Part shown: positions 11,269-40,687 of the stretch, one piece after another
How positions within the stretch are numbered: the first letter of the stretch is position 1
How the letters are laid out: each line of letters begins with the position of its first letter
Origin: Clostridia bacterium
Lineage (GTDB): Bacteria > Bacillota > Clostridia > Lachnospirales > Lachnospiraceae
NCBI GenBank assembly: GCA_009929525.1
Contig: SAAH01000003.1
Span: 13,650-77,649 of the forward strand
Length of the DNA stretch: 64,000 nt
Direction of reading: 5' to 3'
The notes under the pieces: model-generated
Told to the model about the DNA's origin: nothing
Database searches by the model: none
What the model saw: only the letters and a program-made list of their open reading frames with translations
Translations under genes and position numbers: made by a program

Positions 11269-12195
11269 ATGCCTATAAAAATTCAAAAAGATTTACCGGC
11301 ACGGGAGATACTGGAAAAAGAAAATATATTTGTGATGGATGAATCAAGAGCTATGCATCAGGATATCCGTCCGATAAAGATACTTATATTGAATCTGATG
11401 CCGTTAAAGGAAGAGACAGAACTCCAGCTGCTGCGCTCCTTATCAAATACACCTCTGCAGGTGGATGTGACATTCATGGTAGCAAAAAGTCACGAATCGA
11501 AGAATACCTCAACAAGCCATCTGAACAAGTTTTATCTTGGATTTTCCCAGATAAAGGATCAGAAGTTTGATGGCATGATCATCACCGGAGCACCGGTGGA
11601 GCAAATGGAATATGAGGATGTGGATTACTGGGAAGAACTGAAAGAAATCATGGACTGGACAGAAAACCATGTAACTTCAACCCTTCATCTGTGCTGGGCT
11701 GCCCAGGCAGCTTTATATTATCATTATGGCCTGCCAAAAAAACAGCTTCCGAATAAGATGTTTGGATTATACTGGCATAAGGTACAGAATAGAAAAATCC
11801 CGTTGGTGAGAGGATTTGACGATGCATTTTTGGCACCGCATTCCCGTCATACAGAGGTTTCAGCAGATGATATCCATGCATGCAAAGACCTGACGGTACT
11901 GGCTGAGTCAGAGGAAGCAGGAGTGTTCCTTTGCATGGCAGAGGACGGAAGGAAGATCTTTGTTATGGGACACCCGGAATATGATCGGGTGACTTTGGAT
12001 GGTGAATATAAGAGAGATAAGGGAAAAGGATTAGATATCCAGCTTCCAAAAGGATATTATCCGCAGGACGACCCGGAGAACAGACCGTTGCTTTTGTGGC
12101 GCGCGCATGCGAATAATTTGTATACTAATTGGCTCAATTATTATGTTTATCAGTGTACACCTTATGATTTGGATGGGACACCGGATTTTAACTAA
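11269..12195 (+). CDS. metA: homoserine O-acyltransferase (MetA type)
   Basis: N-terminus [11 protein letters not shown]...ENIFVM and the active-site Cys context [12 protein letters not shown] are characteristic of MetA. Confidence 0.9.
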
Positions 12196-21943: not shown

Positions 21944-22603
21944 TTAAACAATAAAATTGCGGCAGCATTCCTCAAACTCATGAAAGAATGCCTCAGCATG
22001 ATACCCGTCATTGACAGCATGATGGAATTCCGCTGTCACAGGCATCTTGATCCGTTCCCCGTCTTCATAATATTTTCCAATCATGATAAATGGAATATAA
22101 CTGGTGTTCGGGGTTCCATAATGGGTGAAGGATGCCGGTTTTGAATAGCTGAGCGAAGAGAAGCTGGTGTTTGGCATGATCGAGATGTGGACATTGTCCA
22201 TATCGTCGCTCGTGTCGAAGTACAGGCGGTCTCCAGCCTCGGCTTTTTCTTTGTCCAGAAGAAACTCCTTATAGAATTCGGAAAATTCTTCTTTGTAAAA
22301 TGTACGCTGATGGGTAAACAGATGGTCGGAAGCGGTGCGAAGCACAGTATAATGTGCATTAACCTTTTCCCAATATCCAATCTTGCCATCAACCTTTGCA
22401 TATCGATAATCCTGATGCTCATTGACTGTTTTTACAATACAGTAGCAGATGGATGGATAGAACTTGTAATGATTTTTGTGGATCATATTAAGAAATTCTG
22501 TCACATCAAGCTGGACTGTCATACAGTACATATAGCCGTTAAACGCATCAAAGATCTCACGGCGATCCCAAGTATCAAAATCAATAGGATGAAAAGGATT
22601 CAT
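21944..22603 (-). CDS. cat: type A chloramphenicol O-acetyltransferase family protein
   Basis: 219 aa. N-terminus MNPFHPIDFDTWDRREIFD and catalytic-His signature HHAVNDGYH (CAT consensus HHAVCDG[FY]H). RBS AAGGAGG. Confidence 0.85.
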   Translation of the reverse strand: MNPFHPIDFDTWDRREIFDAFNGYMYCMTVQLDVTEFLNMIHKNHYKFYPSICYCIVKTVNEHQDYRYAKVDGKIGYWEKVNAHYTVLRTASDHLFTHQRTFYKEEFSEFYKEFLLDKEKAEAGDRLYFDTSDDMDNVHISIMPNTSFSSLSYSKPASFTHYGTPNTSYIPFIMIGKYYEDGERIKMPVTAEFHHAVNDGYHAEAFFHEFEECCRNFIV

Positions 22604-29800: not shown

Positions 29801-30401
29801 CGGTGGTGTTGACCACGTATTAGCTAGTGGAAAAGACATCAACGTAATGGTATTCGATACAGAAGTATATTCTAACACAGGTGGACAGTTCTCCAAATCT
29901 ACTCCTACTGGAGCAATCGCTCAGTTCGCAGCAGGCGGAAAAGAAACCAAGAAGAAAGATATGGCATCTATCGCTATGTCCTATGGTTATGTATATGTAG
30001 CTCAGATCTCCATGGGTGCTGACTTTAACCAGACAGTTAAAGCTATCGCAGAAGCAGAAGCTTATCCGGGACCATCCCTGATCATCGCTTACGCTCCATG
30101 TATCAACCATGGTATCAAGAAAGGTATGAGCAAAGCTCAGACCGAAGAAGAATTGGCAGTTAAGAGTGGTTACTGGCACAACTTCCGCTTCAACCCAGAA
30201 GCAGACAGCAAGTTCACTCTGGATTCCAAAGCTCCTACAGAAGATTATCAGGCATTCCTGGATGGCGAAGTTCGTTACAATTCTCTGAAACGTTCTAACC
30301 CAGAAAAAGCTGCTAGACTGTTCGCTCTGAATGAGGCTCAGGCTAAAGCAAGATACGAGTACCTGAACAAGTTGATTACTCTGTATGGTAGTGAAGAATA
30401 A
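26874..30401 (+). CDS. nifJ: pyruvate:ferredoxin (flavodoxin) oxidoreductase
   Basis: 1175-aa single-chain PFOR. N-terminus MDGNHAAAHASYAYSDVAAIYPITPSS, ferredoxin motifs CIQCNRCAYVCP and CTGCGSCANVCP, and TPP motif GGDGWAYDIG. Confidence 0.95.
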   Translation: MARKMKTMDGNHAAAHASYAYSDVAAIYPITPSSVMAEATDEWATQGRKNIFGQEVQVTEMQSEAGAAGAVHGSLAAGALTTTYTASQGLLLMIPNLYKIAGEQLPGVFNVSARALASHALSIFGDHSDVYACRQTGVAMLCESSVQEVMDLTPVAHLASLKGKVPFINFFDGFRTSHEIQKIETWDYEDLKDMADMDIIDAFRKNALNPNHPCQRGSAQNPDIFFQAREACNSYYDALPAIVEEYMDKVNAKLGTDYKLFNYYGAADAEKVIVAMGSVNDTIEETIDYLLAAGEKVGVIKVRLYRPFCAQALVDAIPETVKQITVLDRTKEPGALGEPLYLDVVAALKGTKFNDTPIFTGRYGLGSKDTTPAQIVAVYNNTEKQKFTIGIVDDVTNLSLETGAPLVTTPEGTINCKFWGLGADGTVGANKNSIKIIGDNTDMYAQAYFDYDSKKSGGVTMSHLRFGKKAIKSTYLIHKANFVACHNPSYVNKYNMVQELVDGGTFLLNCPWDMEGLEKHLPGQVKAFIANHNIKFYVIDGVKIGIETGMGPTRINTILQSAFFKLADIIPETQAIDLMKAAAKATYGRKGDDVVAKNWAAIDEGAKQVVEIQVPESWKNAEDEGLTMTHATSGRQEAIDFVNNIQAKVSAQEGNNLPVSAFKDYVDGTTPSGTSAYEKRGIAVNVPVWNPENCIQCNRCAYVCPHAAIRPVAMTAEEAANAPASLEMTGLKEYKFAMAVSVLDCTGCGSCANVCPGKKGAKALAMENLEANLEAQKFFDYAVTLDEKKDVIEKFKENTVKGSQFKQPLLEFSGACAGCGETPYAKLITQLFGDRMYIANATGCSSIWGNSSPSTPYTMNSKGQGPAWSNSLFEDNAEFGYGMLLAQKAIRDGLKAKVESVMASDKASDEVKAACKEWIDTFSVGATNGAATDKLVAALEGCDCDTCKDIVNNKDFLAKKSQWIFGGDGWAYDIGFGGVDHVLASGKDINVMVFDTEVYSNTGGQFSKSTPTGAIAQFAAGGKETKKKDMASIAMSYGYVYVAQISMGADFNQTVKAIAEAEAYPGPSLIIAYAPCINHGIKKGMSKAQTEEELAVKSGYWHNFRFNPEADSKFTLDSKAPTEDYQAFLDGEVRYNSLKRSNPEKAARLFALNEAQAKARYEYLNKLITLYGSEE

Positions 30402-30431
30402 GATATAGTGACTCTTTGAGTTACTTGATGG

Positions 30432-30466
30432 AAAGGCGTCAGCCCCTTGGGGTTGGCGCCTTTTTT
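30432..30466 (+). terminator. intrinsic terminator after PFOR
   Basis: AAAGGCGTCAGCCCC pairs with GGGGTTGGCGCCTTT (two G-U pairs), then TTTTTT. Confidence 0.8.
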
Positions 30467-30937
30467 ACGGCAAGGCTGGGTATGGAAAGAGATTGGGTGC
30501 TATGACTCTCTTTTATTTCCATAGGGGTGGACGTGTTCTGCTTTTGATTGGAATTCTTTTAAATCATAGATTTTCATGTTGCCATTGAATTGGGCTATGG
30601 TCACTCCGTCAAAGCTTCCGATGGTATTTTCATAACCGCATTCAAAGTACCATTCTATAAATGCAGTTTTATCTACAATAGTGATGTCTTCGTTGCTATG
30701 CTGATCCGGCGGGGCATATACACAAAAGTGCAGAAATATATTCCGTATTGCCAAGCTAAACACGATGATTTTAAGTGAATTGGGGCATCTGCAACAAATT
30801 TATACTATTGCCGCGTTATTGAGTCCTGACACAGGGCAGGAGGCGAATATTACTTGTCTTTGACCAAGATAGCAGAAACGCTAATACAAAGAAACAGAAT
30901 CAATTCACACAACGTACTTTCACTCCACCAATACACA

Positions 30938-31218
30938 GCCACCCATGGACCGGAGCTTGCCAGGGCAGGAAGGGCGGAAAGAGTGGCATCGAGCCTGCGC
31001 TGATAAAAATCTTGGTGCGGGAAGGGCAGAGTGGGTTGAGTGAAGTGTGCTCACCAAAGCACACTTCAAAGACACCTGAGGTGCGTATGCATCAGCATAC
31101 GTGCCGAATGTGGCTGATCTCGATCCAACCTGCCCTTCCCGCACCTAGATTTTTACAGCAAAGGATCTGCCATTCTTTCCGCCCTTCCTGCCCTGGCAAG
31201 CTCCGGTCCATGGGTGGC
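30938..31218. repeat. 281-bp nested near-perfect palindrome (long-hairpin element) of unknown function
   Basis: Outer arms 30938-30988 and 31168-31218 are reverse complements at 50/51 positions. Inner arms 31005-31029 and 31130-31154 match at 24/25. Apical hairpins at 31041-31068 and 31080-31105. The element is GC-rich in an AT-rich gap. Confidence 0.85.
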
Positions 31219-31273
31219 GTCCCCTCCCTCCCAATACAAATTGCAAAATCCCCTTTATAACCCTCAATTAAAA

Positions 31274-31282
31274 TGCTATAAT
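31274..31282 (+). promoter_or_regulatory. extended -10 promoter element (TGcTATAAT) for the PRTase-like operon
   Basis: TGCTATAAT at 31274-31282, 77 nt upstream of ATG 31359. No good -35, consistent with an extended -10 promoter. Confidence 0.45.
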
Positions 31283-31358
31283 AAACACATAAAAACTCGG
31301 GGGCAATCCCCGCCATATTTATGCAATATGGCGGTGGATACAAGTAAGGAGGTATTTT

Positions 31359-32000
31359 ATGGAAAGTAGAATGCATAAGATTTTTGCTGAAGAAGACAGA
31401 AAGATTGCTTTGAAGGTGTATGAAGGACATTTTGCAACACCTCATTCTCATATCACGCATTATTTTGATATGACAACACTGCGGACGCGAGCTTCAGAGG
31501 CGTCGGCGGTTGCAAGGGTGCTGGCAAGGCATTATGAGCTTAGTACGATCGTAGATACGATCATCTGTATGGACGGGACAGAGGTTATTGGCGCATATCT
31601 GGCTGAGGAACTTTCAAATGCAGGTATCATGTCTATGAATGCACATGAGACGATTTATGTAGTAGCACCGGAGATCAACATTAATGGACAGCTCATGTTT
31701 CAAGATAACATGACTCCGATGATCAAGAATAAAAATGTATTGATATTAACGGCTTCTGCTACAACGGGTGGTTCCTTACAGACCTGCATGGACTGTGTAA
31801 AATATTATGAAGGAAAGCTTCAGGGAGCATGTGCGATATTCAGCGCGATCAGAAAAGTAAATGATATGCCGGTCATCTCTATCTTTTCATCAGATCAGGT
31901 AGCAGAATACAGAAGTTATACAACAAGAGAATGCCCGAATTGCCGTGCACAAAAAAAGATAGATGCGATAGTGAATGGGTTCGGATATTCCAAATTATAA
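31359..32000 (+). CDS. phosphoribosyltransferase-fold protein with a degenerate PRPP motif and two CxxC pairs
   Basis: The PRPP-loop-like segment VLILTASATTGGSL lacks the usual acidic pair (consensus VLIVDDvxTTGgT). CMDC and CPNC motifs lie in the C-terminal part. RBS AAGGAGG with an 6-nt spacer. Confidence 0.7.
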   Translation: MESRMHKIFAEEDRKIALKVYEGHFATPHSHITHYFDMTTLRTRASEASAVARVLARHYELSTIVDTIICMDGTEVIGAYLAEELSNAGIMSMNAHETIYVVAPEININGQLMFQDNMTPMIKNKNVLILTASATTGGSLQTCMDCVKYYEGKLQGACAIFSAIRKVNDMPVISIFSSDQVAEYRSYTTRECPNCRAQKKIDAIVNGFGYSKL

Positions 32001-40635: not shown

Positions 40636-40687
40636 TACAACAAAGAAGAGAATTTGCGAAATTTTGCAGATTCTCTTCTTTGTTGTA
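40636..40687 (+). terminator. 18-bp perfect-stem hairpin after glyQS (terminator candidate lacking a clear U tract)
   Basis: TACAACAAAGAAGAGAAT (40636-40653) pairs with ATTCTCTTCTTTGTTGTA (40670-40687), with a 16-nt loop. Confidence 0.45.

Follow-up and report, generated by a model that had tools for sequence, protein, structure and literature searches.

We describe here a 281-bp foldback element at positions 30938-31218 of a 64,000-nt stretch of DNA from a Clostridia bacterium (GenBank assembly GCA_009929525.1, contig SAAH01000003.1, positions 13,650-77,649 of the forward strand); we refer to this whole stretch as the window. The window is ordinary chromosomal DNA, encoding EF-P, LigA, MetA, MTHFR, PFOR, Era, RecO, GlyRS and PPDK among others, and the element, a nested near-perfect palindrome, lies between the PFOR gene and an operon that begins with a gene for a 213-residue phosphoribosyltransferase (PRT)-like protein and continues with genes for DUF3877, SseB-like and PreP proteins. 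The reading we favour, which we hold with about as much belief as doubt, is that the element is an insertion-polymorphic, non-autonomous foldback DNA, similar to a MITE (miniature inverted-repeat transposable element), and that its apex is presumably the recognised part, the stems needing only to be self-complementary.

The gap that contains the element, 30402-31358, is the window's largest stretch without a credible intact gene. The original prediction, made from this DNA alone, called it the largest non-coding gap; no larger stretch lacks an intact gene, but the gap does hold a SnoaL-like gene fragment, which we regard as a pseudogene remnant because only the C-terminal ~60% of a SnoaL_2 protein is left. 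From the PFOR stop codon at 30401, the order is terminator, SnoaL fragment (on the minus strand), palindrome, promoter and PRT-like gene. The features of the gap are as follows (the related locus L011 and the covariance model R1 are introduced below).

30437-30466, plus strand: intrinsic terminator of PFOR, a G+C-rich hairpin followed by T6; also present in L009, a related locus without the element
30500-30763, minus strand: SnoaL_2-type gene fragment, an 87-codon open reading frame (ORF) corresponding to the C-terminal ~60% of a ~121-residue SnoaL_2 (PF12680) protein
30928-30935, plus strand: CCAATACA, left copy of an 8-bp direct repeat, separated by 2 nt from the left arm
30938-31218, minus strand (the orientation homologous to both L011 copies): whole foldback element, 281 bp
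30938-30988: outer left arm, 51 nt, pairing with 31168-31218
30989-31003: left side of the internal loop, 15 nt, facing 12 nt at 31156-31167 and complementary to them in part
31004-31040: inner left arm, 37 nt, pairing with 31119-31155
31026-31133, minus strand: conserved apex module (R1 match), in which two hairpins meet at a three-way junction
31041-31068, minus strand: apical hairpin of 11 bp, hairpin 2 of the family
31076-31109, minus strand: apical hairpin, hairpin 1 of the family
31119-31155: inner right arm
31168-31218: outer right arm
31231-31238, plus strand: right copy of CCAATACA, 8 bp, 12 nt from the right arm
31254-31282, plus strand: predicted promoter of the PRT-like operon, TTTATA-17-TGcTATAAT, kept in orthologues

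Together the arms provide 88 paired positions (51 + 37 bp) in a two-part stem that is split by the internal loop and closed by a 78-nt asymmetric apex with a three-way junction and two short hairpins. The outer arms are Watson-Crick complementary at 50 of 51 positions, the sole exception being G30983.T31173, and begin and end with GCCACCC.../...GGGTGGC. The core of the inner arms (31005-31029 / 31130-31154) matches at 24 of 25 positions, with a T.T opposition at 31013/31146, and the extended inner arms (31004-31040 / 31119-31155) have 32 Watson-Crick pairs and two G.T pairs in 37 positions (86%); an outer-arm motif, GGAAGGGC..AGTGG, recurs within the inner left arm. One apical hairpin (31041-31051 / 31058-31068) is paired at 11 of 11 positions, and its loop on the minus strand is TTTGGTG, inside GCTTTGGTGAGC, for which the L011 counterpart is GCTTTGTGAGC. 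The other (31080-31089 / 31096-31105) has eight Watson-Crick pairs plus T31082.G31103 and G31083.T31102, and these two adjacent wobble pairs lie at the inner edge of two minus-strand motifs, ATTCGGC (31103-31109) and ACCTCAG (31076-31082), that flank a covarying 8-bp stem with the loop TGAT. The minus-strand apex is thus marked by ATTCGGC, ACCTCAG, the loop TGAT and GCTTTG(G)TGAGC, and the apical loops read CACCAA(A) and ATCA on the plus strand and TTTGGTG and TGAT on the minus strand.

The fold of the element is far beyond chance. As RNA, the folding energy is -228.9 kcal/mol (z -25.2) for the plus strand and -219.7 kcal/mol (z -21.8) for the minus strand, with none of 200 shuffles equal or better in either case, and with DNA parameters the values are -137.3 (plus) and -129.1 (minus) kcal/mol. 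The element is also the sole inverted repeat with arms longer than 26 nt across the 64-kb window. Its G+C content is 57%, compared with 41% for both the remaining gap and the window, and the ORFs it contains exist solely through this composition; six-frame protein searches, aimed at copies annotated as spurious ORFs, returned nothing except one weak match to an unrelated repetitive ORF. The description on which the original prediction was built therefore stands in these respects, since the coordinates and pairing counts given for arms and hairpins (50/51, 24/25, 11 and 10 bp) were all reproduced, as were the G+C-rich composition and the lack of a credible ORF, and the folding of both strands that it proposed as a check places the plus strand ~9 kcal/mol ahead. 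We note that a smaller, 52-bp spacerless palindrome (26-nt arms, 92%) lies at window 40636-40687, flanked by a GH35 glycosidase gene and by a gene for a class II aminoacyl-tRNA synthetase that we read as GlyRS.

Long palindromes in metagenomic assemblies invite the suspicion that an assembler has made a false inverted duplication. Independent contigs do end inside the element, and its complete left half is known from the window only. Nevertheless, the element is not an assembly artefact, because its arms are imperfect, its internal loops are unequal (15 versus 12 nt) and two further, independent assemblies, L002 and L003, share its right part (167 nt, identical in both). The apex is asymmetric and has the same orientation in L003 as in the window, and full-length homologues or analogues are spanned by contigs elsewhere, in L011/L012 and in L035, L037 and L038, the last three of which differ in sequence among themselves. 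The artefact explanation is, in our view, extremely improbable. The L002 and L003 contigs break within the repeat, L002 starting exactly where the first 31-mer that extends past the arm begins, which matches the behaviour expected of a de Bruijn assembler with k = 31. Short-read and Logan contigs (L002, L003, L013, L036 and L110) reproducibly terminate inside such palindromes, which are systematic assembly breakpoints in gut metagenomes.

Empty sites in relatives, which the original prediction had asked for, do exist. In the loci L009/L010 (93%), L018 (88%) and L111 (87% identity of the PRT-like protein), PFOR is followed by a spacer of ~200-250 bp and then the PRT-like gene, and both the palindrome and the SnoaL fragment are absent from these spacers. 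The element is thus an indel polymorphism among close relatives. Close to its ends lies the 8-bp direct repeat CCAATACA, which could be a target duplication; a repeat like it is found by chance at 0.7% of window positions. We considered whether the palindrome and the SnoaL gene together form a cassette and ruled this out, as no palindrome lies close to the SnoaL homologues found in other genomes.

The original prediction treated the element as single-copy, which is correct for the window; relatives nevertheless exist elsewhere, in L011 and L110. L011/L012, from the metagenome-assembled genome (MAG) GCA_018374355.1, encodes a PRT-like orthologue that is 90% identical, with AspRS upstream and a palindrome on each side:

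L011:5471-5714: upstream palindrome
L011:6665-6909: downstream palindrome

The two L011 palindromes share one geometry (outer arm 31 nt, inner arm 44 nt, apex of 82 or 84 nt with two hairpins), and each starts ~20 nt past a stop codon. In L110, where an 88% identical orthologue stands in a third gene context, the downstream copy is present and the upstream copy is absent. We use the label family A for the window element and the L011 copies, which gives three full copies from two organisms. The family is small and previously undescribed. We also observe, at L011:5715-5880, directly after the upstream palindrome, a G-rich tract of ~170 nt with GGGAGTGG-type motifs, whose composition is like that of such an element's 5' arm in unpaired form.

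What the copies have in common is the apex. By eye, the minus-strand apex of the window element reads ATTCGGC-[8-bp stem]-TGAT-[stem]-ACCTCAG...GCTTTGGTGAGC and the L011 apex reads ATTCGGC-[8-bp stem]-TTGAT-[stem]-ACCTCAG...GCTTTGTGAGC, and the global alignment gave a shuffle-test z of 4.2 in the reverse orientation versus 1.4 in the forward one. A covariance model, R1, was built from the two L011 apices alone, leaving out the window copy. With default filters R1 missed the window copy, and filters had to be switched off for its recovery; it then matched window 31133-31026 on the minus strand with 32.7 bits (E~1e-6), compared with 7.8 bits on the plus strand and 13.2 bits at the next-best site in the 64 kb. 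By these comparisons the window element is a member of family A, placed in the opposite orientation to the L011 copies relative to the PRT gene. Between the two L011 copies the apices are 87% identical in alignment versus ~57% for the stems by hand count, while within each copy the arms are 86-97% complementary. Across the 93 predicted pairs of these two copies, 32 have changed on both sides and still pair, and a single one has changed on one side. In the three-sequence alignment that includes the window, 39 of 62 pairs are doubly changed and 92.7% of cells are paired, a figure that falls to 32-48% when the partner is slid, and none of 500 shuffles reaches the observed values. The apex is the conserved part of family A, and the stems diverge freely yet their arms stay complementary.

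A second set of palindromes near the same PRT-like gene, which we call family B, behaves in much the same manner. These came from a palindrome survey by self-BLAST over 1.17 Mb, covering loci around PRT-like orthologues.

L035:11255-11625: family B palindrome with 138-nt arms, 93% complementary
L037:11260-11626: family B palindrome, orthologous to that in L035
L038:7351-7717: family B palindrome, orthologous to that in L035
L036:5715 to the contig end: partial family B copy

The Rfam motif RF01731, TwoAYGGAY, proves to be the core of these 370-bp near-perfect palindromes (83 bits in L035 and 76.8 bits in L038, against a gathering threshold of 43 bits); the apical loops are ATGGAT and ACGGAT, and the palindrome reaches ~100 bp past the Rfam model on each side. 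A 10-bp direct repeat, AAAAAAATAC, abuts the L037 and L038 palindromes, and 16-20 bp separate their ends from the downstream -35 hexamer of a MarR-family gene. L035 and L037 share 88-89% identity in the flanking genes, with differences at 28.5% of third codon positions; in the stems 37% of sites differ, and of 156 pairs 51 have changed on both sides (48 of them still paired) and 15 on one side. Judged by these rates, the family B stems change at a roughly neutral rate with complementarity kept. The outer stems of L035 and L037 are unalignable and yet paired.

Families A and B are alike in topology, but common membership is not demonstrable, because TwoAYGGAY gives no match at E<=10 to window 30400-31400 or L011 5400-7000 and the family A model scores 13.9 bits on the L035 apex. 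Two further observations belong to these loci. The TwoAYGGAY palindrome carries TTTCAC..TGAAA motifs in its conserved inner stem (L035:11375-11390 and 11492-11507), and these resemble two operator-like sites, TTCACATTGTGAA and TTCACTTTATGAA, in the flank at ~L035:11690-11730, immediately downstream of the promoter of the adjacent MarR-family gene. In addition, a third type of palindrome, 165 bp long, takes up the spacer that separates a metallophosphoesterase gene from a SpoVT/AbrB-like gene (L093:19764-19926, L097:19767-19929 and L104:16887-17053), and its plus strand folds better than its minus strand by ~12 kcal/mol.

The original prediction placed weight on a plus-strand G-U signature, in which three of four stem mismatches would still pair in a plus-strand transcript. 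That count is true of the segments chosen, but when G.U pairs are counted over whole minimum free energy structures of each strand, the window element has five on the plus strand versus three on the minus strand, and the three family A copies together have six on the homologous strand versus ten on the other. The counts for plus and minus are 2 and 3 in the upstream L011 copy and 1 and 2 in the downstream one, and by strand the family B copies have 2/4, 5/6 and 2/3. Folding energies of the two strands differ by at most 4%, with no constant sign, among the window, L011 and family B copies. The plus-strand G-U signature is not significant. Differences between paralogues, moreover, are nearly all complete double substitutions, transversion pairs included, with almost no wobble intermediates. 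Because of this pattern, copying between arms at the DNA level, or a constraint on both strands, fits better than selection on an RNA. Template switching within palindromes and intra-palindrome conversion have been reviewed as a mechanism (PMC8794818).

These results bear directly on the possibility that the element is a gene for a structured non-coding RNA similar to TwoAYGGAY, with a head that would bind a protein or other partner and a stem for which being double-stranded would suffice, for example as an RNase III substrate or stability module. Retention of unpaired loop and junction motifs next to covarying hairpin stems is the classical signature of a functional fold, the topology is shared with RF01731, the core of family B near the same gene in other Clostridia, and TwoAYGGAY itself was judged a probable RNA without a cis-regulatory role (Weinberg et al. 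2010, PMC2864571). The window's own plus strand is likewise ahead by ~9 kcal/mol and by five G.U pairs to three. Nevertheless, the bias of G.U over A.C between strands is inconsistent across copies, and one-sided change at 1 of 93 pairs fits copying of the duplex better than selection that tolerates G.U. We found no promoter-like driver of the element and no terminator after it, its orientation with respect to the neighbouring genes is not the same in the window and in L011, close relatives lack it, and stems of 88-140 near-perfect bp are far beyond the needs of known bacterial RNAs. We consider an RNA gene unlikely on balance, although it is an alternative to be taken seriously.

It is far less likely that the element serves as a cis regulator or insulator of the PRT-like/DUF3877/SseB/PreP operon, either modulating its promoter or acting as a barrier to read-through after PFOR. 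The position is suggestive, in that the element stops 36 bp short of the -35 hexamer and ~70 bp short of the predicted transcription start, and family B palindromes likewise stop 16-20 bp short of a -35 hexamer. However, the promoter block GAAAAAA..CTTTAT..TGnTATAAT is kept in eight of eight aligned orthologues whatever adjoins it upstream, and orthologous operons with the same promoter lack the element. If this conserved predicted promoter is used, the element lies outside the downstream transcription unit. PFOR has its own terminator ~470 nt upstream of the element, there is no T-tract after the element on either strand, and L011 and L110 have copies downstream of the gene instead. A regulator of the downstream operon is thus disfavoured, given a promoter that lies downstream of the element, relatives that have the operon and not the element, and the opposite orientation in L011. 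We also note two features of the operon itself. The predicted 5' untranslated region of the PRT-like gene (window 31298-31334) contains adjacent hairpins, CGGGGGCAATCCCCG and CCGCCATATT-TATGC-AATATGGCGG, that are not kept in the orthologues aligned, and the PRT-like and DUF3877 genes overlap by 26 nt (window 31975-32000), which suggests translational coupling.

The promoter block (window 31243-31290) recurs upstream of the PRT-like genes of L009, L018, L111, L110, L011, L014 and L112, and among orthologues that are 79-93% identical the gene stands behind at least four different upstream genes, namely PFOR, AspRS, the L110 gene (for which URO-D-like is a guess only) and PFL activase. Gene and promoter, compared in this way, seem to move as one unit. 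An alternative is that the palindrome is a structure-specific DNA site, read as a cruciform or single-stranded hairpin, that serves as a recombination or cassette boundary, as a priming site similar to a single-strand origin, or as a template or target of a reverse transcriptase or other nucleic-acid enzyme encoded elsewhere in the genome. Such a site would account for equal constraint on both strands and for a conserved apex. Heads of T or Y shape are characteristic of sites that are recognised by their structure, and the two L011 copies, in the same orientation and each ~20 nt past a stop codon, bracket the PRT-like gene and its promoter in the manner of a cassette, a gene that is found in at least four contexts among close relatives. 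On the other hand, no recombinase, Rep, relaxase or reverse transcriptase gene is present in the window or adjoins any copy, the setting is chromosomal and housekeeping with no plasmid or phage match, the apex lacks the ssoA motif CS-6 (TAGCGT) and the ends lack the attC R-box (GTTRRRY), and SnoaL homologues elsewhere have no adjacent palindrome. We regard this explanation as doubtful.

Several known classes were considered and set aside. At gathering score, the Rfam search of the whole window returned one tRNA only, in agreement with the original prediction that no riboswitch consensus is matched, and at E<=10 the gap matched plant miRNA-precursor models only; such models match any long hairpin. 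A riboswitch or 5' leader is ruled out by the conserved promoter downstream, the absence of the element from close orthologues and the lack of an Rfam hit. Invertons have inverted repeats on either side of a promoter, an invertase nearby and both orientations within populations; here the apex offers nothing promoter-like and the window encodes no recombinase, which rules out an inverton. No window ORF has an RVT match, which rules out a retron msr-msd with its adjacent reverse transcriptase gene. Origins of the ssoA type belong to rolling-circle replicons and carry the CS-6 loop motif TAGCGT/A; the chromosomal neighbours, the absence of a plasmid match and the absence of TAGCG from either strand of the apex rule out this class. 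Integron attC sites are 57-141 bp long, have R boxes (RYYYAAC/GTTRRRY) and are associated with IntI or a cassette array, and attC is ruled out for an element of 281 bp with ends GCCACCC/GGGTGGC, no GTTRRRY and no integrase found. A reading of the element as a terminator was rejected on the defining features of terminators.

Among the three explanations put forward in the original prediction, namely a mobile palindromic repeat, a structured RNA or regulator of the downstream operon, and a DNA hairpin resembling a single-strand origin, the first has gained most support and the regulator has fared poorly, its promoter lying downstream and the element being absent from relatives. Mobile or indel palindromic DNA is favoured because orthologous sites are empty, paralogues occur elsewhere and an 8-bp repeat lies near the ends. 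The element, like MITEs, is small and non-coding, has inverted-repeat ends and is found at filled and empty sites among close relatives.

A number of observations weigh against this reading. Since the adjacent SnoaL fragment, too, is missing from the empty sites, the indel, which measures ~760 bp with that fragment included, may be a block of that size and not the palindrome alone. The CCAATACA copies do not abut the arms (they are 2 and 12 nt away), and the L011 copies have no clear flanking duplication. Termini are not shared among copies or with an insertion sequence (IS) or transposase, in contrast to the ends of MITEs that a transposase reads: the outer arms of the two L011 copies share ~58% identity, those of the window element cannot be aligned to them, and no terminus recurs in 1.2 Mb of related loci. 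Only one family copy is present within the 64-kb window, and two within the 12.6 kb of L011. No transposase, integrase, HUH, Rep or reverse transcriptase gene is present in the window, and phage and plasmid collections, searched by BLASTN with the elements of the window, L011 and L035, contained nothing similar. A stem 24-mer had zero matches in JGI metagenomes, and a stem 20-mer had five among species-representative genomes, of which the two in Firmicutes lie inside coding sequence and the remaining three, single matches in unrelated G+C-rich MAGs, are presumed to be chance; stem k-mers are, however, poor probes for relatives, because the stem is the variable part. Finally, TwoAYGGAY, which is alike in topology, is listed by Rfam and Weinberg et al. 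(2010) as a probable RNA, and by analogy an RNA product may exist here as well.

Two other searches add little in either direction. R1 found no further copy among other PRT-locus sequences, a negative that is weak for the 0.9 Mb of more distant sequence, which was run with the default filters that also missed the window copy. Viral contigs, searched with the apex motifs and a gapped family pattern, gave chance matches only, with no palindrome.

If the element is indeed mobile foldback DNA, we propose that it was gained, or lost, through an indel close to a site containing AATACA, immediately upstream of the promoter, and that insertion possibly left the 8-bp duplication. It would have been mobilised in trans, by an enzyme that would read the apical hairpins in single-stranded or cruciform DNA and not the termini. 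Complementarity of the arms would then be kept mainly by arm-to-arm copying of DNA, through template switching during replication or through conversion within the palindrome, and selection for hairpin formation, if there is any, would act on both strands equally. Effects on neighbouring genes, such as those of a cruciform or topological barrier or of an RNase III-sensitive hairpin in read-through transcripts, would be a by-product. The physiological importance of the element is probably small, because it apparently does not regulate the adjacent operon.

More speculatively, family A and the TwoAYGGAY-cored palindromes might be two branches of one unrecognised class of hairpins in gut Clostridia that are read at the apex. 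These would move through a single-stranded DNA or an RNA-to-cDNA intermediate, with an enzyme acting in trans on the head, would land by promoters and gene ends, and would mark or promote rearrangements. We think this idea improbable, though it would have distinct consequences: complementarity of the stem, and not its sequence, would be the only constraint inherited there, and these elements would mark or promote shifts in gene order, among them those seen in the PRT-like gene's four contexts.

The favoured reading, if true, would give uncultured, Lachnospiraceae-like gut bacteria a small family of foldback insertions, long and rich in G+C, that no RNA or repeat library contains, and would offer a clean natural example of palindrome upkeep at the DNA level, in which the apex is kept and the stems are approximately neutral yet complementary. 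It would also warn that compensatory changes are not by themselves proof of an RNA. The orphan motif TwoAYGGAY gains a context, sitting at the centre of palindromes that are much longer than the motif and have direct repeats at their flanks. At a practical level, such elements reproducibly break short-read assemblies and sit at gene-order breakpoints. One unrelated feature of the window is a chloramphenicol-acetyltransferase-family gene (PF00302) at 21944-22603 on the minus strand, amid housekeeping genes.

Lastly, the element can be set beside several known systems. REPINs are paired REPs that are mobilised by RAYT transposases, which presumably read them in trans as a folded single strand; they measure ~70-110 nt, number tens to hundreds per genome with high sequence similarity among the copies, and are linked to a RAYT gene. 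The element as we propose it is likewise hairpin-forming, non-autonomous and acted on in trans, but none of the features of size, similarity, copy number and RAYT linkage is seen. The inverted terminal repeat of parvoviruses such as adeno-associated virus is a long stem capped by two small hairpins, and origins of the ssoA type keep their fold at low sequence conservation and work as a folded single strand. To both of these the resemblance is one of shape only, as the element is chromosomal and has no Rep, no plasmid or phage match, and no CS-6 or RSB.

The resemblance to TwoAYGGAY is closer. Both have a long basal stem with a junction that carries two adjacent hairpins, and both are intergenic, occur in human-gut Clostridiales and are not tied to 5' untranslated regions. 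The TwoAYGGAY palindromes of family B, moreover, are found near the same PRT-like gene, with hypervariable complementary outer stems and flanking direct repeats. The window element differs in that its loops are not AYGGAY and in that it has no RF01731 match at E<=10, the gathering threshold of the motif being 43 bits. Among palindromic repeats, YPAL/RU-2 of Yersinia, ERIC/IRU and Correia/NEMIS are, like the element, small, non-coding and intergenic, with ends that pair into one stem-loop and with filled and empty sites between relatives. The element departs from MITE-like repeats in its length (281 bp versus ~100-200 bp typically), its variable termini and conserved centre, its single copy within the window and the lack of any related IS or transposase found. 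YPAL is not A+T-rich, lacks TA termini and has target duplications of 3-26 bp (Delihas 2008, PMC2229807), and the element is similarly not A+T-rich and without TA termini. Of the palindromic repeats YPAL/RU-2 is the closest in behaviour, and TwoAYGGAY is the closest system in shape and habitat.

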